From: a virus
Taxonomy: Duplodnaviria > Heunggongvirae > Uroviricota > Caudoviricetes
DNA length: 30,377 nt
Virus record (IMG/VR): IMGVR_UViG_2654587686_000023
Reading direction: 5' to 3' (one strand)
In this document: in pieces, positions 4,872-30,377 of the stretch
How the letters are laid out: the number at the start of each line of letters is the position of its first letter
How positions within the stretch are numbered: position 1 is the first letter of the stretch
Notes under the pieces: generated by a model
What the model was told of the DNA's origin: nothing
Seen by the model: only the letters and a program-made list of their open reading frames with translations
The model's database searches: none
Position numbers and translations under genes: made by a program

Positions 4872-5302
4872 CCGTCCAGAAGAAGATATTTTCACTGGCT
4901 GGTATGTCGCCAAAATCCAGCAATATGACAGCAAAGTCTGGCATTAATACAGCATATACAAGCAAAGTTTATCATTTTCTGGTGGTAGGAGCGGATGCCT
5001 TAACTATGTCAGAAATTACGGTCGATGGTGTTAGCGTTGAGAAGGTCGGCGGCTGCGCCAGAGAATTTCTGGTCGTAGATGGCTTTCTCTGCTCGCGTAG
5101 TGACTCCACAAAAACCTTCGTCCACACGCGCGACGTTAACGAAATGAGCGCGATGTATTGTGCATCTGGTGCTTCCAATAGTGAGTTTTCGGAGTCCATA
5201 AAAAAGAGCTTGCCGTTATGCGGCAACACGGTTTATGGTTATAAGGCACCTCATAAAACGGGTGCCGGGATTGGCGTCCTGAAAATTCTGAAGGCGACAT
5301 AT

Positions 5303-5324
5303 GACGCGCCGAGCGTCTTTTTTT
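5303..5324 (+). terminator. Rho-independent terminator (GACGC-GCCGA-GCGTC followed by T7)
   Basis: Perfect 5-bp stem with 5-nt loop followed by seven T residues. Confidence 0.6.
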
Positions 5325-5370: not shown

Positions 5371-5526
5371 CCAGCGCCTTTGTCAATCAATGGTGGCTCA
5401 GGCGGGGGCTTCTTCGGAAGCGCCGGTATCCTTCAGAGCCGGTTACGCCAACCCTGTCTGGGCTACCACCAGCGAAATTGGCGTTTCCGGTGGTAGCGTA
5501 ACCTGCTATCTGAAGGAGGCTGCCAC

Positions 5527-6379: not shown

Positions 6380-6597
6380 CCAACATCCAGCTCATTGAAG
6401 CGCAATGTCGCATCGAACAGGTTCAGACTGTTTTAGGGTTCTGGCTTGAAGGGGCCAGCCCCAGCAACAGAGACAAGTTAATGATTGGCGCGGTTATGTC
6501 ACTGCTCAATGGCGTACCAGAAGCTATTCAGGAAGCAGACGAATTGTTGGGCAAATATGAGTTACAGAATCATTCAGGCGAGGCGAAACATGAATAA
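6376..6597 (+). CDS. hypothetical protein (73 aa)
   Basis: ORF with ATGA overlap to upstream gene and GGAGAG SD. Confidence 0.55.
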   Translation: MTNIQLIEAQCRIEQVQTVLGFWLEGASPSNRDKLMIGAVMSLLNGVPEAIQEADELLGKYELQNHSGEAKHE

Positions 6598-7544: not shown

Positions 7545-7908
7545 AAATGCAGAAATGGCGCTTAGCTCCGCAATCGGAGAGCAGGTGGCAAAGATTGCTG
7601 GTGCTGTGTGGATTCATAACCTTCATTCTACTGGTGAAGAGAAAATGGCAATTCAGACGCCAGAGGGACGCACCATTACTACATCTCTGAAGCCGTCAGA
7701 TGTTTGTGATCTGATTTGCGCATTCATGTACCCAGCAATGAGGACTGTCCACGGCGATAAGTGGAAACTTGCGACAACCGCTGAATTTGATATGTGGCTA
7801 AACAATGATGGCATGCTGACTGATTACGGAATAACCAAGTGGCAGATGCTGGTTAGCCATATCGCAAACGCTATAGACCACGTGGGGTACGGTGATGCGA
7901 AACATTGA
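7537..7908 (+). CDS. hypothetical protein (123 aa)
   Basis: ORF with GGAGG SD, overlapping neighbours at both ends. Confidence 0.55.
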   Translation: MRENAEMALSSAIGEQVAKIAGAVWIHNLHSTGEEKMAIQTPEGRTITTSLKPSDVCDLICAFMYPAMRTVHGDKWKLATTAEFDMWLNNDGMLTDYGITKWQMLVSHIANAIDHVGYGDAKH

Positions 7909-10651
7909 TCTTATCCGTCAGGTTATCAGTGCGTCTGAAAACAACTGGCCTCATGTGCTGGGCTGCCTGAACATAAATGTCCCTGACTCTCCGCGCCGTC
8001 ATGCTCCCTGCCCTGCATGTGGGGGCAAAGATCGATTCCGGTTCGATGACAACGGGCGCGGTAGCTTCATCTGTAATCAGTGCGGCGCTGGTGATGGGCT
8101 GGATTTAATTAAACGCGTAAATAACTGCGACACAACAGAGGCGGCGCTTCTTGCCGCTGATGTTCTGGGTATTGATTACCGGACAACGGAAACACCAGAA
8201 GCCACCAGCCAGAAACGGGAACAACTGGAAACCGAGCGCCAGCGACGCGAACAGGAGCGCCTGAAAAGGGCAGAGAAGGACGAACAACAAAGACGGGATA
8301 CGTTTTCCCGTCAGTTTGATGACATGCGCAGAAAGGCTGTAAACGGCAAATCTGATTATCTGGTTGCGAAAGGGGTAGGTGATTTTACATTCCCCGTGTT
8401 GCCCGATGGATCTCTGTTGCTGGCGCTGGTGGATAAATCCGGCGCAGTCACAGCAGCACAGACTATTACCTCACATGGTGAAAAAAGACTCCTGACAGGT
8501 TCAGCAAAGCGGGGGGCATATCACGCCATAAACGCACCAGAAACAACACAGAGCATCTTAATCGCAGAAGGGCTGGCAACGGCATTATCTGCCCATTTAA
8601 TTCGTCCAGAGGCGCTGACAGTGGCGGCGATTGATGCCGGGAACCTGTTATATGTCGCCCAGGTACTGCGGGATAAATATCCATCAGCACAAATCATCAT
8701 TGCTGCGGATAACGACCACAGCGAAGGAAGACAAAACACGGGGAGAATAGCAGCAGAAAAAGCAGCTTTATCTGTTTCTGGATGGGTGGCATTACCCCCG
8801 ACAGATCACAAAGCAGACTGGAATGATTACCACCAAAAACACGGCATTAAATGCGCCACAGAAGCGTTCAATAAGTCAATGTACCAACCACAGGGTAATG
8901 GCGTGAAACAGGAGCCACAGACCATTGAGGGAAGCGATTTTAAGGTTATGGATACCGACCCACTGAAACCAAGAATAGAAAGCCGCGAGGATGGTATTTA
9001 TTGGGTATCTCCGAGAGCTGACAGCCAGAGTGGAGAAATCATCAATAACGAAAGCTGGTTATGTTCTCCGTTAAGCGTTATCGGTACTGGCAGAGACGAT
9101 AAAGACCAGTATCTCATTCTTCGCTGGCTGTCGTTTGGTTCTGAAACGCCGACAACCGCTGCCATTCCACTGGCTGATATTGGTGAACGTGAAGGATGGC
9201 GCACACTTAAAGCTGGTGGGGTAAATGTCACGACCAAAAGCAGCCTCAGAGCAATACTGGCAGACTGGCTACAACGCAGTGGCTCTCGTGAATTGTGGCG
9301 TGTTGCTCATGCCACTGGCTGGCAATGCGGAGCGTACATCATGCCTGATGGGGAAATCATCGGAACACCTGAAAATCCTGTGCTGTTCAGCGGGAGAAGC
9401 TCAGCCGCAGCCGGATATACCGTCTCAGGGAGCGCGAAAAGCTGGCGTGATAACGTGGCGCGTCTGGCCTTTGGTAACTATTCAATGATGACCGGGATCG
9501 GCGCAGCACTGGCAGCGCCATTGATTGGGCTGGTGGGCGCTGACGGGTTCGGCATTCATTTCTATGAGCAGTCGAGCGCAGGTAAGACCACCACGGCAAA
9601 CGTGGCGAGCAGCTTATACGGCAACCCTGATTTACTGCGGCTGACGTGGTACGGAACCGCGCTGGGGCTGGCAAATGAAGCCGCCGCCCACAATGACGGA
9701 CTAATGCCGCTTGATGAAGTTGGTCAGGGCGCTGATCCTGTCAGTGTTTCACAGTCTGCCTATGCGTTATTTAACGGTGTAGGGAAACTGCAAGGCGCTA
9801 AAGATGGTGGAAACCGGGATCTAAAACGCTGGCGTACAGTGGCAATCAGCACTGGAGAAATGGATTTAGAAACATTTATCGCTACTTCCGGGCGAAAAAC
9901 CAAAGCCGGGCAACTGGTGCGACTGCTGAATATTCCGTTGAGTAAAGCAGTACGCTTTCACGATTACCAGAACGGAAAACAGCACGCAGACGCACTGAAA
10001 GACGCTTACCAGCATCACCACGGCGCAGCCGGGCGTGAGTGGATTAAATGGCTGGCAGACCACCAGCAACAGGCAATTAAAACTGTTCGTGACTGCGAAA
10101 GCAGATGGAGAAGTCTGATCCCATCCGATTATGGTGAGCAGGTTCACCGTGTAGCCGCGCGATTTGCCATTCTGGAGGCCGCATTGCTGTTAGGCGAGGT
10201 TGTAACAGGCTGGGATGCTCAGACATGCCGTGATGCGATACAGCACAGCTATAACGCATGGTTGCGCGAGTTCGGCACAGGTAACAAAGAACATCAGCAG
10301 ATTATTGAACAAACGGAGGCATTTCTTAATGCCTATGGGCTTAGCCGTTTTGCACCATTTCCATACAGCCCGGCAGATTTGCCCATCAAAGATTTGGCCG
10401 GATACCGTCAGCGTGGAGAACATGACGAAAGCCCAATGATTTTCTACACATTCCCGGCCACATTTGAAAAGGAGATCGCATGTGGTTTCAACGCAAAACA
10501 GTTTGCTGAAGTGTTGAAAAAAGCCGGGATGCTAACCCCACCAAACAGCGGTCGTGGATACCAAAGAAAATCACCACGTATTCAGGGACGACAAATAAAC
10601 GTTTATGTACTCAATTACCAGCCAGGAGATTATAACTCATCTGAAGAATGA
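7892..10651 (+). CDS. P4 alpha-like primase-helicase (zinc-binding primase domain + TOPRIM-like region + D5/DUF927-type NTPase)
   Basis: 919-aa ORF; N-terminal CPACGG...CNQCG zinc-ribbon typical of P4 alpha/bacteriophage primases; Walker A-like SSAGKTT in the C-terminal half; size and position typical for P4-like islands. Confidence 0.85.
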   Translation: MMRNIDLIRQVISASENNWPHVLGCLNINVPDSPRRHAPCPACGGKDRFRFDDNGRGSFICNQCGAGDGLDLIKRVNNCDTTEAALLAADVLGIDYRTTETPEATSQKREQLETERQRREQERLKRAEKDEQQRRDTFSRQFDDMRRKAVNGKSDYLVAKGVGDFTFPVLPDGSLLLALVDKSGAVTAAQTITSHGEKRLLTGSAKRGAYHAINAPETTQSILIAEGLATALSAHLIRPEALTVAAIDAGNLLYVAQVLRDKYPSAQIIIAADNDHSEGRQNTGRIAAEKAALSVSGWVALPPTDHKADWNDYHQKHGIKCATEAFNKSMYQPQGNGVKQEPQTIEGSDFKVMDTDPLKPRIESREDGIYWVSPRADSQSGEIINNESWLCSPLSVIGTGRDDKDQYLILRWLSFGSETPTTAAIPLADIGEREGWRTLKAGGVNVTTKSSLRAILADWLQRSGSRELWRVAHATGWQCGAYIMPDGEIIGTPENPVLFSGRSSAAAGYTVSGSAKSWRDNVARLAFGNYSMMTGIGAALAAPLIGLVGADGFGIHFYEQSSAGKTTTANVASSLYGNPDLLRLTWYGTALGLANEAAAHNDGLMPLDEVGQGADPVSVSQSAYALFNGVGKLQGAKDGGNRDLKRWRTVAISTGEMDLETFIATSGRKTKAGQLVRLLNIPLSKAVRFHDYQNGKQHADALKDAYQHHHGAAGREWIKWLADHQQQAIKTVRDCESRWRSLIPSDYGEQVHRVAARFAILEAALLLGEVVTGWDAQTCRDAIQHSYNAWLREFGTGNKEHQQIIEQTEAFLNAYGLSRFAPFPYSPADLPIKDLAGYRQRGEHDESPMIFYTFPATFEKEIACGFNAKQFAEVLKKAGMLTPPNSGRGYQRKSPRIQGRQINVYVLNYQPGDYNSSEE

Positions 10652-23525: not shown

Positions 23526-24065
23526 TTACGCCTCCTCTTCTTCCTTCTTAATTCGCTGTACCGTTGAAGGAGCAACATTAAAGCTCTCGGCGGTTTTACG
23601 CACTGACAGGCCATCAGAAAGGGCTTTCTTTATACCTTCTCTATCTACTGCTTTTCCATTACCACGCTTTGTAGGATTGACGGCTTGCGCTTCTCGTTTA
23701 CGCTCTAACATCAGTTCACGTTCACACGTTGCAACTGCCGACAACATCGTAAGCATCATTTTTCCCATCGCGCTTGTAATGTCTGCAATGATCCCTTCTT
23801 TATGAAATCGAACAATTACACCTCGATTATTAAGTTGTTCCACTAAGGCAAGAATGTCTAAGGTGTTACGCCCTAAACGGTCGAGAGAGTGCACGTGTAA
23901 GGTGTCGCCTTCTCTCAGATAGGATAAACACGCCTGCAATCCTGGACGGTTAGTGTCTTTACCTGACAGCTTATCTTCAAAGACTTTATCAAGCGTTACT
24001 CCTGCAAGCTGGCGATCAGTGTTCTGATCTACAGTGCTCACACGCTTATAACCGATATTGCTCAT
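23526..24065 (-). CDS. small serine recombinase (resolvase/invertase family, 179 aa)
   Basis: N-terminal IGYKRVSTVDQNTDRQ with the catalytic-serine context typical of resolvase/invertase-type serine recombinases; short C-terminal DNA-binding region; size matches small resolvases. Confidence 0.85.
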   Translation of the reverse strand: MSNIGYKRVSTVDQNTDRQLAGVTLDKVFEDKLSGKDTNRPGLQACLSYLREGDTLHVHSLDRLGRNTLDILALVEQLNNRGVIVRFHKEGIIADITSAMGKMMLTMLSAVATCERELMLERKREAQAVNPTKRGNGKAVDREGIKKALSDGLSVRKTAESFNVAPSTVQRIKKEEEEA

Positions 24066-24079
24066 AAAATCCCCTTAAT

Positions 24080-24190
24080 GTATCGATTTGGCACTACTCC
24101 AATGCAAATGAGTATATCGTATTCATTTGGTCTGTTTCAAGCCTTATAGGTACGGAATATTACACGATTTAGATGTATTCATTTGGTATG
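24080..24190. promoter_or_regulatory. Repeat cluster upstream of recombinase gene: GTATTCATTTGGT at 24119-24131 and 24176-24188 plus related GTATCGATTTGGC at 24080-24092; candidate res/operator
   Basis: Three related 13-bp motifs directly 5' of the recombinase start codon; resolvases usually act at multi-subsite res sites next to their gene. Confidence 0.4.
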
Positions 24191-24674
24191 CCTAATGGAT
24201 ACACAGGGGAATAGATTAAATAGTGTTCTGTTTATACAGGTTTATTTGTTAGATCAACAATTTGGCATTTCTAAACAGATGTTTGAACGTTGCCAAATGT
24301 CTTGACAACACAAGAAAAGGGCTTGCTATGCCACGCATTACACGAAATAAGGCTGTAAAAACAAAATAAATTTTAAAATTTGCACAAACGAGAAAACTCA
24401 TTCAGAAACAAGCAGAACAATTTTTAGCCAACAATTTCTGATGGTGCTCTGTAAGCCGCACTACACAAGGCTTTGCGAAAGTGATGTAAAAGTGAAGAAA
24501 GTAAGAATTGCACTTTTAAGCTACTTTTCATTGAATTTTTAGTATGGAATTACACAGGAATAAGTTAGGGATATTCTATGATTTACACAGGGAATATAGG
24601 GGATTATGGCACACACATAGAAAGGCATTACACAGAGTGCTATGTGATGATTGGTAGTAACGGTAGTTCACTAT

Positions 24675-24784
24675 GAGCTAGGGGGTAGTTCACTATGAGC
24701 TAGGGGGTAGGTCATAGTGAGCTAGGGGGTAGGTCACTGTGAGCTAGGGGGTAGGTCATAGTGAGCTAGGGGGTAGGTCACTGT
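24675..24784. repeat. Five tandem 22-bp iterons GAGCTAGGGGGTAG(G/T)TCA(C/T)(T/A)GT with a partial leading copy from about 24655; candidate plasmid/phage replication origin
   Basis: Contiguous 22-bp direct repeats without spacers, immediately followed by an extremely AT-rich stretch (24795-24880, including (TA)n). Confidence 0.75.
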
Positions 24785-24794
24785 GAACTACAAT

Positions 24795-24880
24795 AAGACT
24801 ATTAATAAAACTATATTAGATTATTAATTAGATCATAATAATAATATTCTTTATATCTATATATATATATGATCTTTTGC
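24795..24880. other. AT-rich putative DNA unwinding element adjacent to the iterons
   Basis: Nearly pure A/T run with TATATATATATA; iteron + AT-rich arrangement is standard for theta-type origins. Confidence 0.5.
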
Positions 24881-25868
24881 CTTCCGGCGTTAGCTTCACT
24901 CTCTGGCAAGCAGCCTTACTCCGCTACCTTTGGGCTTCGTGGCTGGCCCGTTCCGCTCACACCGAAAGCAAAGCGTTACTTTCTTCGTGTAACTTCGTTG
25001 GCGATAACGCCCACGAAGAAATCTATTGCGCTGTGCGCAGAAGAGTAATCACCTAACCAATCATACTGATTGCTTATGTGTTAACTCTAACTCTTAATTC
25101 CACTTCTACATTCTGTAGTTGTGTAATTACTCGAAGAGAGAGCGGCTAAAGCTCAATTACACTCTGCTTTCCTCGTGTAATTTCACTAAGCCTCAATACA
25201 ATTCCACTTTCTACATTTAATAACTCTCGTTATTCTCTGTAGTTGTGTAATTGTTTTCGGTGGAAAAGCCAGAGGCGACACCGAAAGAGAATTCTGATCT
25301 TATTAATCTTATCTATCTTAGTTATCTTACTTATCTACTTTATTATTAATAATAGCTTTATAAGCTCTGTGTAGCTCTTTGACGCAAGAAACAGCATTCA
25401 GGAAGGGAATCACCTTAGAAAAGTGTTCTTTGCGTCATAATGTGTTTTATGAAGGATTCAGAGGTGTTTCATAACAGGAATGTATAGAGGATACTTTAAT
25501 TAATTAAAAATAAGGGGTCTAAATGCTTCTCTAATAGCATTAAGCAGGGTAGGGAATGGAAACGCATTGCCTACATATAATAAACTCACTACAGGGCTTT
25601 ACAGGGCGTTTTATAAAGTGACTCTCTATCTTATATCTACCATTACCTTTTCATATACCTAACAAATACAAAATAAGCCCCTTAAATAAGCCTCTGGCGA
25701 GCTAAACAGCCATTACATAAGGGAATGTATTGCTTTTATCAAAACCTCGTTAGAACGCGTTTTAGAGCGTTTTAGCGGATAATGAAGAATAGCACCACAC
25801 AGGAGAGCACGAATTGCTAAGAAAAAATGTAAGTGCATGAAAAAGATCGGATTTTTTGTGAAAAGGTA

Positions 25869-25896
25869 TTGACAAATGTTTCTTTATATGTAATAA
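25869..25896 (+). promoter_or_regulatory. sigma70-like promoter (TTGACA - 16 bp - TAATAA)
   Basis: Consensus -35 and near-consensus -10 about 110 nt upstream of the 26008 gene. Confidence 0.5.
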
Positions 25897-26007
25897 TAGG
25901 TATTAGAGGGACAGAAAACATTCTTCTCTAAATAATCAAAATCAATGCACTTTGAAGCCGTCAGGCTTGCAAGGTGTTTTTTCTTTTAACTGAATAAGGA
26001 GTTTTTT

Positions 26008-27414: not shown

Positions 27415-27543
27415 AATCTCTCTATGTAATTAAAATATAAAAGGAAAACATTATTATGATAGTAGCTATGTATTGGTTATTGTTCTTTCTCACGTTAGAA
27501 ACATATTTCGGGGTGTTTTCCTTTAAAAGAAAAGGAAAAATAA

Positions 27544-27954
27544 ATGGCAAAAAGAAAAAACAATGTTGTTAAGAAGATCGGTGATTCAGCTTCTCTTCTA
27601 AGTAAACCTAAATCTATTCTAAGACGTAAAGACTTTAAAGAGCTAGTTACGCTCACCAAGCATAATAGCGCCCCTGGCGAATGGAAAACAGAGATCATAG
27701 AACATTCTCCCTCTGTGCCTTGTGGAGATGAATATATCGCATTACAAGAAATCTTATCTTCAACACCTGGCGTATTCTGGAAACCTAGAAAAAGAAAAGA
27801 GTATATTGTTGATAGCTCTGATTTACGCAAATACCAGATTTTAGGATTTGAAGATTATAATCACTACGTTGGTTATCTCGCCACCAATGGCCTAAATAAT
27901 TTAGTTCCTGAATTCCAGATTCTGGATAATGTTGATCACTATGGAGACTTTTAA
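27544..27954 (+). CDS. hypothetical protein (136 aa), basic N-terminus
   Basis: ORF with AAGGA SD. Confidence 0.55.
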   Translation: MAKRKNNVVKKIGDSASLLSKPKSILRRKDFKELVTLTKHNSAPGEWKTEIIEHSPSVPCGDEYIALQEILSSTPGVFWKPRKRKEYIVDSSDLRKYQILGFEDYNHYVGYLATNGLNNLVPEFQILDNVDHYGDF

Positions 27955-28294: not shown

Positions 28295-28323
28295 AAAAAG
28301 CAACAAAAAAGTTGTAAAATATC

Positions 28324-28352
28324 TTGACATTTCATCTATTGTATGTTAATAT
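28324..28352 (+). promoter_or_regulatory. Strong sigma70 promoter (TTGACA - 17 bp - TAATAT)
   Basis: Consensus -35 and 5/6 -10 with optimal spacing in the intergenic region upstream of the head-gene block. Confidence 0.6.
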
Positions 28353-28484
28353 AATTATATAGGGTGATTATTTTTCCTTTGTTGGTTCGATATTAAAAAT
28401 TCTTCCTGTCATTAAAGGGGAGTAAAATCTCCGCTCCCCGCTTCTCCTCCTCCTTAAGTGTCATTATTACCTCTTTTTTCCTTT

Positions 28485-28514
28485 GTTATGCATACATCTT
28501 GGAGTATGCATAAC
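28485..28514. promoter_or_regulatory. Perfect 10-bp inverted repeat GTTATGCATA-N10-TATGCATAAC; candidate operator or RNA hairpin
   Basis: Seen in sequence within the leader between promoter and terminator. Confidence 0.45.
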
Positions 28515-28543
28515 ATAGGGTAATTACATAGGTATGAGTTAAT

Positions 28544-28576
28544 AAAAGGCGGCTTTAAATGCTGCCTTTTATTTTG
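28544..28576 (+). terminator. Intrinsic terminator-like hairpin (AAAAGGCGGC-TTTAAAT-GCTGCCTTTT + ATTTTG)
   Basis: About 10-bp stem with one mismatch, flanked by A-run and T-run, about 215 nt downstream of the strong promoter and about 60 nt upstream of the next gene. Confidence 0.5.
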
Positions 28577-28637
28577 CCCGTTATGCAACTTAAAAGTTGT
28601 ATTTCTTACTTTAAACAAGGTAACAAGGTTTATATAA

Positions 28638-28850
28638 ATGTTGTTCTTAAATGATAAAGAGCAAATCATCAAGTATAAAGATGAAATGCTGAAAATTAAT
28701 CCACAAATTACCGAAATGGTAGCTAAATACGCTGGGTGTTCTGTAGAGGAAGTAGAAAGATGTGTTGAAAAATATTTTTCTCCTTCTTCTCCGTCTACAC
28801 CTTCCCTTAATGAATTAATCAAATTAAAAGCTAAGGAGATTACTAAATGA
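28638..28850 (+). CDS. small hypothetical protein (70 aa)
   Basis: ORF; weak SD; stop overlaps next start (ATGA). Confidence 0.45.
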   Translation: MLFLNDKEQIIKYKDEMLKINPQITEMVAKYAGCSVEEVERCVEKYFSPSSPSTPSLNELIKLKAKEITK

Positions 28851-29209
28851 TTATTGATTTAGACGCTCTTTTTCCAAGTCGAAAGACGTTTACAGATCTG
28901 GTGGCTTATTGTACTGATCCGTTTGCCTCTGTAGAAAGCAAGGTTTTTGCTTCTCTTCCTGCTGATGTTGAATGCGGAGACTTGATCACCAGCACTGGCG
29001 CTAAATATGAATCAGGAGATGATATCTATGTTGTTATGAGTGAATTTGTAACGGCTGGAGACAACAAGCCTGTAGATGTGCTACGTAGCAATGCTGGGCT
29101 TGTATGCATCAAAGCTGATGCCCTGAATGCTGTAAGTGAAGCAGCAAAAACAGCATTAATTAAAAAAGGCTTCCAGCTTGAAGGCTTTAATACGGTTTTC
29201 ACTTCTTAA
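28847..29209 (+). CDS. possible head decoration protein (lambda gpD-like position and size, 120 aa)
   Basis: AAGGAG SD; about 110-120 aa protein immediately upstream of a gpE-like capsid gene, as in lambda D-E; assignment by synteny and size only. Confidence 0.5.
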   Translation: MIIDLDALFPSRKTFTDLVAYCTDPFASVESKVFASLPADVECGDLITSTGAKYESGDDIYVVMSEFVTAGDNKPVDVLRSNAGLVCIKADALNAVSEAAKTALIKKGFQLEGFNTVFTS

Positions 29210-29227: not shown

Positions 29228-30256
29228 ATGATTCTAGGTAATGATTACGTTGATTTAGCCCCTTTGTTCTCTGCGCATAGCACTAGAAACTATCTGCTCT
29301 CTACCCTCGACTTCACTGATCCGGTGGGCGTTAGTTCTCATAAAGTAGCTGTTTCCCAGCTTGTCGAAAGCAACGAATCTCTGTTCAACAAAGAAACCTC
29401 TCGTTTCTCTTCTGAACACAATGTTACTAAGCGAGAACAAGGTAAAGAATGGCTGATTGAAATCCCGTATTTTCTTCGTGAAGATGTGATCCGTCCTTCT
29501 GATGTTCAAGGCAAACGTAAGCCAGGCACTGATTTTCAGGAAACACTCACTGATATCTATGCTGACTATGTTGCTAAACACCACGTAGCGTATCAGCGTA
29601 CAAAAGAGAGCGTGTTGGCTGCATCTCTGTTTAGCGGTAAAACTTACACGCCTAAAACTGATGATGTTCTTATCGAATGGGGCAAGCTGTTTAACGTATC
29701 AGCTATGAAAGCCACTGTGAACGCTTCCAGCACTGACACCACGAAGATTTTTAAAGAATTTGATCAGATTGCTACTGACATTATCGAAAAAGCACAAAGC
29801 CAGGCGGCTGCTGTAGAGCGTATTGTTGTTTTCTGTAAGCCGGAAGCCTTCTCTGCAATTCGATTCTCTGCTGGTATGGCAAACGCATTCCAGTATGTAA
29901 GCCCACTGGAAGAGGGAAACGTTGTGTATCAGCGTCGTGACCTGCTACCGGGGGTGACAGCGTTCACTATTCCAGGAACTAACATTGATGTTATTAAACT
30001 GGTAGATCCGCTACACCTTGCACATATGACCGCTGACGCTGTAGCCGTGCCTAAATTCGCTAAAGGCTCTAACGTCTACCAGGCCATCTATGGGGCGGCT
30101 TCCAGCACTTTTGAACTGATTAATACCGCTCCTGCTGAGGTGTACAGCTACAGCTATGAATCTTCTCGTGGTGATGCTGTTAACGTTGTTACAGAGAATA
30201 GCCAGATGGTTGTAAACCACGGTGTAGGCTTCTCCGTTCAAATCACTGTTAAATAA
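29228..30256 (+). CDS. probable major capsid protein, lambda gpE-like (342 aa)
   Basis: AAGGA SD; length almost identical to lambda gpE (341 aa); recalled local similarity (RIVVFCKPEAFSAIRFS vs gpE NIIVFDPKGWALFRSF; C-terminal GFSVQITVK vs gpE EFVSVQLA). Confidence 0.55.
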   Translation: MILGNDYVDLAPLFSAHSTRNYLLSTLDFTDPVGVSSHKVAVSQLVESNESLFNKETSRFSSEHNVTKREQGKEWLIEIPYFLREDVIRPSDVQGKRKPGTDFQETLTDIYADYVAKHHVAYQRTKESVLAASLFSGKTYTPKTDDVLIEWGKLFNVSAMKATVNASSTDTTKIFKEFDQIATDIIEKAQSQAAAVERIVVFCKPEAFSAIRFSAGMANAFQYVSPLEEGNVVYQRRDLLPGVTAFTIPGTNIDVIKLVDPLHLAHMTADAVAVPKFAKGSNVYQAIYGAASSTFELINTAPAEVYSYSYESSRGDAVNVVTENSQMVVNHGVGFSVQITVK

Positions 30257-30377
30257 TATTTTAACGTGTAATAGAGGCGTGGCGCTGATGAATCCCCTAA
30301 TGATTTTGGTAAAAATCATTAAGTTAAGGTGGATACACATCTTGTCATATGATCAAATGGTTTCGCGAAAAATCAAT

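Follow-up and report, generated by a model that had tools for sequence, protein, structure and literature searches.

What does a near-consensus promoter do when the terminator that follows it lies directly in front of capsid genes? This question is raised by the cassette that begins at position 28324 of the IMG/VR virus record IMGVR_UViG_2654587686_000023 (Caudoviricetes), the whole stretch of which, 30,377 nucleotides (nt), is called the window below. In phage lambda, late control relies on the promoter pR', the 6S RNA, the terminator tR' and the Q antiterminator, and a preliminary description of this DNA had proposed a similar arrangement. We consider it quite plausible, if short of probable, that the cassette acts as a termination gate, holding back the late operon (capsid and tail genes) in a satellite-like island of about 12 kb. 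A conserved promoter, a structured RNA, terminators and paired palindromes were observed, together with the absence of any late promoter-like site. The RNA is more than a spacer, a point that the preliminary description lacks: it is structured and modular, with exposed motifs resembling the anti-Shine-Dalgarno (anti-SD) sequence. The parts of the cassette in the window are the following.

28324-28352, plus strand: sigma-70 promoter, termed P_RNA, with the -35 hexamer TTGACA at 28324-28329, a 17-nt spacer and the -10 hexamer TAATAT at 28347-28352.
28359-28364, plus strand: predicted transcription start, placed by the G-run, and conserved RNA 5' end (A/U)AGGG.
28361-28407, plus strand: 5' stem-loop SL1 of the minimum-free-energy fold, in which the 5' GGG pairs with UCC.
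28417-28439, plus strand: stem-loop SL2, GGGGAGU/GCUCCCC, -12.2 kcal/mol, z = -2.5.
28440-28479, plus strand: CU-rich tract with anti-SD-like motifs, CUUCUCCUCCUCCUUAAG...CCUCUUUUUUCC, unpaired in centroid folds.
28479-28520, plus strand: stem-loop SL3, an inverted repeat, -21.3 kcal/mol, z = -6.5.
28541-28573, plus strand: intrinsic terminator, a 13-bp hairpin (A-tract, GGCGGC/GCUGCC, U-tract) with the U-run UUUUAUUUU ending at 28577, -18.7 kcal/mol, z = -4.7.
28614-28640, plus strand: translation start region of the first late gene, with a duplicated AACAAGGU; its ATG is at 28638 and the N-terminus is kept across leader types.

All elements of the preliminary description were indeed recovered. 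The promoter is present where it had been placed, and a TG at 28344-28345 further makes it an extended -10 promoter, with a promoter scan score of 10/12 when this TG is included. The terminator-like hairpin with its T-run, described as lying about 215 nt downstream, was found ~216 nt from the start near 28359-28362 and 60 nt ahead of the first late gene; a generic terminator scan did not list the 28541-28577 site, likely because its stem runs into the U-tract. The hairpin said to be flanked by polypyrimidines corresponds to SL2, with CUUCUCCUCCUCCUU 3' of it. The perfect 10-bp inverted repeat is real but was underestimated, as the arms of SL3 (28480-28495 and 28504-28519) are of 16 nt each and 94% complementary. 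Within the window alone, the match of P_RNA was not significant (19 promoter-like sites in 10 kb, vs. 25.7 expected from shuffles). A single sequence thus proves little, since such matches are no commoner than in shuffles, and it is the relatives that decide.

These were sought among 123 loci with capsid-protein relatives (40-100% identity), from viral contigs, species-representative genomes and metagenomes, using a strict pattern (-35-like hexamer, 16-18 nt, TAnnnT, 3-10 nt, T(A)RGGG). The promoter and GGG occurred at the homologous position in 99 of the 107 loci with enough upstream flank; elsewhere, the pattern was encountered 16 times in 1.92 Mb. The position of the cassette was kept down to 54% capsid identity, in the order early genes, cassette, 70-amino acid (aa) open reading frame (ORF), 120-aa ORF and major capsid protein. 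Among 79 distinct leaders, the 17-nt spacer was present in 78, a TTGACA -35 hexamer in 55 and the TG in 59. A canonical terminator was found in 73 of them; in the other six, the hairpins are terminator-like, but the loop is long or the U-tract weak. Judged by this conservation, the cassette is a real unit, maintained far beyond chance.

The leaders fall into six types, none of which is aligned with another by BLAST, and range from ~220 to 950 nt (type A, that of the window, ~220 nt; types B-F, 350-950 nt). All six share a 5' (A/G)GGG start, with the G-run beginning 8-10 nt past the -10 hexamer, and a 3' terminator whose distance to the first late gene is 45-70 nt. With its architecture kept, the leader diversifies far more rapidly than the genes on either side. 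Among type A loci, the intergenic region equals the coding flanks in conservation, and two spots vary: the CU tract, which is the most variable (repeat slippage, indels), and a 17-nt deletion right before the terminator, the stems remaining intact or G.U paired. As type A indels (1, 9-11 and 17 nt) are not multiples of three, the leader is non-coding; coding potential was rejected on this ground and because the sole plus-strand ORF has 31 aa and spans the terminator. Some leaders have features of their own. In a type C leader (L016, ~6404-6422), GATAATGAAAATCATTTGC overlaps the -35 hexamer of P_RNA and agrees with the 19-bp Fur box consensus in 16 of 19 positions, a hint that this leader type may respond to iron. 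Two type F leaders (L111 and L116) contain short tandem repeats, TATCGTAT, in three to four copies, the copy number varying.

What makes a gate plausible is the region behind the cassette. On the plus strand, the promoter scan detected nothing promoter-like from the terminator to the capsid operon, and in an intact copy of the island this strand has no strong promoter other than the early promoter and P_RNA. Since no other promoter-like site precedes the late genes, their transcription must pass the terminator. This terminator is not the only one: extra terminator-like hairpins occur inside long leaders (L068, 1781-1802; also L016 and L019), and a strong terminator (a stem of 9 pairs, including 5 G-C, and a run of seven T) separates the capsid gene from a 67-aa ORF at 15985-16009 of L003, an intact type A copy. 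The equivalent of the latter in the window would fall just past 30256. As the polymerase would have to get past a series of terminators, and past as much as 900 nt of untranslated leader open to Rho, processive antitermination is most likely, and not a single-terminator switch.

The gate may then work as follows. With its consensus -35, 17-bp spacer, extended -10 and A-rich upstream sequence, the sigma-70 promoter P_RNA would be very strong and independent of any activator, and we infer that it fires constitutively. It would yield a folded untranslated RNA, of ~215 nt here and up to ~950 nt in relatives. Polymerases from P_RNA, and from the early operon, which runs into the cassette with no terminator between, would be stopped efficiently by the intrinsic terminator, 60 nt short of the first late gene. 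The late genes, without a promoter of their own, would be expressed only once the polymerase resists termination, and the bypass, given serial terminators, would be processive antitermination. The polymerase would be modified at the cassette via the 5' part of the leader, via the palindromic DNA sites, or both, by an antitermination factor that may be provided by the island or by a helper phage.

The leader clearly has a structure of its own. The terminated RNA (28361-28575) folds at -62 kcal/mol (z = -5.0), and a variant copy folds alike (type A, z = -5 to -6). SL1 is weak in type A and not significant alone (-5 kcal/mol, z = 0.2). Its loop, in which UUCGA occurs, carries GGUUCGAUAUU and by eye resembles the invariant UUCGAAUCAC loop of type D and E leaders. 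The 5' region of type D that is related to SL1, a homology also seen by eye, is helix 1 of the type D consensus. SL2 is unchanged throughout type A, and in SL3 an A-to-G change seen in relatives keeps the pairing as G.U. The 12-mer UUUUCCUUUGUU, which opens SL3, is present twice in the window (28372-28383 and 28476-28487) and also in type D leaders. For type D, 20 sequences gave a consensus of 20 helices, in which 89.6% of cells were paired, vs. 43-48% with slid partners. Double-sided changes concerned 40 pairs (13-20 with slid partners), the covariation score was 0.258 (at most 0.095), and none of 500 shuffles reached the observed values. The type D leader is thus a real structured RNA, and its modules are mosaic between subtypes. 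Type A was read as a reduced member of the type D RNA family, by eye, because the two share the promoter, the 5' UAGGGU, the 12-mer and a similar loop; these common stretches are short and interrupted.

No known family accounts for this RNA. With Rfam 15, at gathering and E-value thresholds, no family reached threshold for the window and five relatives; the best match was STnc250 (18.6 bits, for a threshold of 42), a score driven by the terminator alone. For C4/P4 CI (RF01695, clan CL00128) and isrK, the models found nothing between 28100 and 28800, even with E <= 10. The island and its RNA are both absent from Rfam, and no description was found in the searchable literature of the satellite family, of anti-SD-mimicking phage RNAs or of the exact RNA sequence. 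When the intergenic region was compared by BLAST with 50,697 phage records, only chance matches were returned. The leader is a new RNA family, absent from Rfam and from the searchable literature, which is structured, modular and fast-diversifying.

Covariation of this kind, with base pairs that include G.U, favours an element acting as RNA. It bears on another explanation, namely that the cassette is a DNA-level element (a packaging site, an origin or a promoter flipped by an invertase) or a module resembling a type III toxin-antitoxin, in which case the resemblance to a promoter and a terminator would be incidental. The island does encode a Hin-like invertase, and the cassette is flanked by palindromes. 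The order promoter, RNA, terminator and protein gene, moreover, is the ToxIN layout, where the intrinsic terminator behind the non-coding RNA sets the RNA-to-mRNA ratio. An invertible switch of the Hin/Gin type was rejected, as the 99 cassettes all have the same orientation and no inverted cassette turned up in the 8 of 107 loci that lack a match. As far as we know, the palindrome is also unlike hix or gix sites, and the likely origin, with its iterons, lies elsewhere (24654-24780). A type III toxin-antitoxin was likewise rejected: there are no tandem repeats of 34-36 nt, no ToxN-like protein and no PADLOC match for the downstream proteins, which include capsid and tail proteins. We regard this explanation as very improbable and largely refuted.

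The leader composition points to quite another possibility. Anti-SD-like pentamers (CCUCC, CUCCU, UCCUC) were counted in one representative per leader type, with dinucleotide shuffles as the control. Over the six types, 39 were observed vs. 12.9 expected (p < 0.001), every type being enriched, and the window leader alone contained 7 vs. 1.0 expected (p = 0.001). By contrast, their GGAGG-like, i.e., SD-like, complements were absent (0 vs. 5.0 expected, p = 0.016), which also supports the non-coding reading. In the type D consensus, 80% of motif bases were unpaired, vs. 63% of all bases. Several copies read (A)CCUCCU(U)AAG and so resemble the 3' end of 16S rRNA. A serious alternative to the gate, possible though doubtful, is that the terminated RNA is itself an abundant trans-acting riboregulator, whose CU-rich motifs resembling the 16S 3' end (CCUCCUUA) would pair with SD regions and lower translation. 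Its targets could be mRNAs of the helper or the host, or else early or late genes of the island itself, in an RNA-based immunity comparable to that of P4 CI or P1 C4; the terminator would only end the RNA gene and insulate the late genes. A riboregulator of this type is compatible with the gate, as the gate RNA could also mask ribosome-binding sites.

Besides these exposed motifs, several observations are in line with such a base-pairing role. The leader outpaces its flanking genes in diversification, as specificity determinants do; the 12-mer is common to types A and D, which are otherwise unalignable; and a 3' hairpin with a U-tail is typical of Hfq-type small RNAs. A 13-nt stretch of the RNA, 28368-28380 (UUAUUUUUCCUUU), is perfectly complementary to 27531-27543, the ribosome-binding region before the ATG of the 136-aa early gene. 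The second copy of UUUUUCCUUU and the terminator tail also match the start region of this gene. The sequence is AU-rich, and the 13-nt match may be due to chance. Weaker complements link the leader to the start region of the rep gene. In type D, the motif UUUUCCUUUGUUGUGU forms a duplex with the start region of its own first late gene at -24 kcal/mol. However, duplex energies between the leaders of five representatives and all start regions of their own islands were mostly not significant against dinucleotide-shuffled leaders (z > -2.5). A cross-type matrix of leaders and first-late-gene start regions, in which some start codons were wrongly set (L018, L110), showed no own-type preference except in type D. 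Because this matrix lacked diagonal dominance, type-specific cis pairing was dropped as a claim and kept as a lead only. Complementarity between a CU-rich RNA and purine-rich start regions is moreover generic, lengths of 600-950 nt are unusual for base-pairing small RNAs, and the riboregulator leaves late-gene transcription unexplained.

Known immunity RNAs offer a partial parallel. As for P4 CI, the C4 RNAs of P1 and P7 and IsrK, a constitutive promoter would here give a prematurely ended untranslated leader that pairs with transcripts of its own element, in a satellite-like host element. Unlike them, the cassette has no Rfam C4 or isrK match and no clear repeats of the seqA, seqB and seqC type, and its complementarities are short and AU/CU-rich. 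We also consider it rather unlikely that exposed 16S 3'-end mimics are the working part of an undescribed RNA family belonging to a new enterobacterial phage satellite. The leader would then be either an RNA-only device, which gates transcription and masks the SD sites of late genes, or a sponge for strong ribosome-binding sites of helper late mRNAs, and its type would set immunity or helper specificity.

The cassette is framed by two copies of a palindrome, YAAC-N6-GTTR.

28301-28314: palindrome O1, CAAC-AAAAAA-GTTG, 10 bp upstream of the -35, its centre at about -52 from the start.
28586-28599: palindrome O2, CAAC-TTAAAA-GTTG, 13 nt past the terminator hairpin and 9 nt past the U-run, ending 39 nt before the ATG.

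Only two further matches to YAAC-N6-GTTR exist in the window. As RNA, O2 would fold into a hairpin of 8 bp (28583-28602) with U-rich sequence behind it, and the A-rich stretch around O1 could be an UP element. The promoter-side palindrome was present in 55 of the 79 leaders at fixed offsets from the -35 (-23 in 41 of them, and +9 to +16, in the spacer, in 14), the post-terminator palindrome in 54 and both in 51, for a background of 0.118 per kb. Its centre is thus at about -18, within the spacer, or at about -52, and the second copy lies 290-680 bp downstream. Types C and F carry one-mismatch versions or a motif of their own, GAGAGTAA, at the same two places. Because P_RNA does not transcribe the promoter-side copy, a DNA-binding protein is the simplest reader of the palindrome.

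Such positions are repressor-like, as are the repeated motifs that types C and F have at the same places, and they suggest that P_RNA might be the true late promoter, shut in the integrated state by a palindrome-binding repressor on O1 and O2, possibly with looping as in the gal operon. The leader would then be an autonomous cis-acting antiterminator RNA, which lets any polymerase that has transcribed it pass the terminators, and the terminators would stop those polymerases whose leader is unfolded. The put RNA of HK022, of ~70 nt and with two defined stem-loops, binds the beta' zinc-binding domain and acts in cis as a processive antiterminator (PMC9378689), and in Tn916 the canT RNA is a cis antiterminator combined with an insulating terminator (PMC11658703). 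In these systems, and in the island on this reading, a mobile element silences costly genes by terminators, and a structured RNA just behind the promoter may pass several of them. Two 5' stem-loops are indeed present behind P_RNA, and the two best-conserved stem-loops of types D and E are at the extreme 5' end, as put is behind PL (PMC9378689); several terminators in series fit as well. Unlike T1 of Tn916, the terminators of the island cannot insulate it from outside transcription, because they lie downstream of the RNA. Moreover, no sequence similarity to put was seen (Rfam has no put family), and the 5' stem-loop is weak in type A. No repressor was found: variants of the winged-helix protein encoded by orf92 follow neither leader type nor operator type, since orf92 of L110 (type F, without the YAAC palindrome) is 90% identical to that of L019 (type D). 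A near-consensus promoter followed by terminators in every lineage also fits default termination better than read-through. We consider this combination of repressor and put-like RNA unlikely.

If the cassette is a termination gate, its antitermination factor could be encoded nearby, and the preliminary description had proposed a small upstream DNA-binding protein for this role. The genes on either side are the following.

25869-25897, plus strand: early promoter (strong).
Up to 28294, plus strand: early operon, with ORFs of 62 and 55 aa, a helix-turn-helix (HTH)/Rep-like protein of 229 aa, a winged-helix protein of 92 aa, a protein of 136 aa and an acidic protein of 112 aa.
28638-28850, plus strand: 70-aa ORF, the first late gene.
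28847-29209, plus strand: 120-aa ORF, a late gene.
29228-30256, plus strand: major capsid protein, Phage_cap_E (PF03864, E = 4.9e-15).

The proposal was not borne out. The model of the 92-aa protein is a generic winged helix (predicted local distance difference test, pLDDT, 66; the best PDB matches are all winged-helix regulators), i.e., DNA-binding but not a Q fold, and the 112-aa protein is acidic by its sequence. The 136-aa ORF (27544-27954) is the sole early gene common to the five leader types with enough upstream sequence (A, B, C, D and F; the type E locus is too short). Its product has 387 relatives, mostly from Klebsiella and all hypothetical without a Pfam domain; the N-terminus is basic, and a KPRKRK patch is invariant. 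With 23 homologues, AlphaFold2 gave no confident fold (pLDDT 56), and a PDB profile search no match. On the late side, the capsid assignment was upheld by the Pfam match, whereas the 120-aa ORF, labelled as a decoration protein, matched no family. In intact copies (L002, L003), further late genes follow, namely the 67-aa ORF and those of a tape-measure-like and a Dit-like tail protein. None of the 50,697 phage records contains a close relative of the capsid protein; the best matches are ~25% identical (PB1/KIL-like Pseudomonas myophages), so that the helper phage is not obvious.

How far, then, does the likeness to lambda go? As with pR'-tR', an activator-free strong promoter would give a terminated non-coding transcript of ~200 nt, and a terminator precedes promoterless late genes; in several leader types, moreover, a DNA site lies between the -35 and -10, where the Q-binding element of lambda is located. 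In this respect, the lambda-like late control of the preliminary description holds for the promoter, the short RNA, the terminator and the absence of a late promoter-like site. Membership in the Q systems is not supported. Unlike lambda, the island has no Q homologue, no evident conservation of a sigma-dependent pause element and no lambdoid capsid; its RNA is structured, covarying, modular and up to ~950 nt long; and a second DNA site follows the terminator.

Several of these points weigh against the gate as well. The 92-, 136- and 112-aa proteins had no Q or N antiterminator match in Pfam, PHROGs, NCBIfam, PADLOC or PDB, although a helper phage may encode a Q. No leader type has a boxB-type hairpin or, at up to 2 mismatches, an ops sequence (GGCGGTAGnnTG). 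Nothing in the window resembles boxA (GCUCUUUAACAA), and only type D has a boxA-like GCUUUCUAACAA, with 2 mismatches. When starts are aligned and compared by eye, no conserved -10-like pause element is evident among the first transcribed bases, where only GGG at +2 to +4 recurs, with no conserved TAnnnT after it. A palindrome behind the terminator is a feature of no antitermination system known to us, and is explained no less well by a repressor or a DNA loop. Nor would a pure gate require the enrichment in exposed anti-SD motifs, which suggests that the RNA acts by base pairing. Finally, terminators are never fully efficient, and read-through from a strong promoter could alone give basal late expression.

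The surroundings of the cassette show what kind of element carries it. The window is Escherichia coli chromosome at thrW, where a P4-like satellite (1610 to ~17500) directly follows the tRNA-Thr gene, in tandem with a second, capsid-bearing island. It is to this second island, low in G+C (~35%), that the cassette belongs. Features of the two islands are as follows.

1369-1444: tRNA-Thr gene.
1610-2824: integrase of the P4-like satellite.
5246-5323: isrK in the P4-like satellite (Rfam, 67.8 bits).
5386-5473: C4 antisense RNA in the P4-like satellite (Rfam, 79.9 bits).
7892-10651: primase-like ORF of the P4-like satellite, 919 aa.
23526-24065, minus strand: Hin-like invertase of the second island.
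24654-24780: iteron array, 5-6 direct repeats of ~22 bp (GGTAGGTCAYWGTGAGCTAGGG).
30330-30377, minus strand: IS10 RNA-OUT, cut by the window end.

Intact copies of the second island, of ~12 kb, contain in order the minus-strand Hin-like invertase, an ORF-free iteron stretch, the early promoter, the early operon, a 343-nt intergenic region and the late genes, with a minus-strand tyrosine integrase as the far end. In the window, the ~2 kb from 24066 to 26007 have no ORF of at least 60 aa; the iterons there are followed by an AT-rich stretch and then by more repeats of the TTACACAG type. This region is probably the replication origin of the island, at which the HTH/Rep-like 229-aa protein would act. 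In this strain, IS10 interrupts the island right after the capsid gene and so cuts the late operon short, ahead of the genes for the 67-aa, tape-measure-like and Dit-like proteins. The intergenic region was found in 307 of 5,426 complete E. coli genomes, always on the chromosome and at 89-100% identity. Carriers include O26:H11 enterohaemorrhagic E. coli, and relatives occur in Klebsiella, Enterobacter, Citrobacter, Kluyvera and Buttiauxella. The island is intact in E. coli O26:H11 RM10386 (NZ_CP028126, at about 340.6-352.2 kb) and in strain C2 (NZ_CP010117). One hit (H60, NZ_CP116925.1 3802180-3802456, E. coli MLI104K2) begins only at query position 67, the promoter and O1 part being missing or replaced, and could be a natural promoter-less variant. 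The element is thus an undescribed, integrative, phage-satellite-like island of enterobacteria.

The kind of device considered here, a promoter-leader-terminator gate before late genes, is known; the RNA family and its host island are new. If the gate reading is true, a satellite-type element would time its capsid and tail genes by antitermination, unlike elements that use a late activator (P4) or a repressor (Staphylococcus aureus pathogenicity islands and phage-inducible chromosomal islands), and the cassette would be a compact and portable promoter-RNA-terminator module that exists in six natural specificity types. If instead the RNA is the effector, it would represent a new class of large phage-associated RNA acting by anti-Shine-Dalgarno mimicry.

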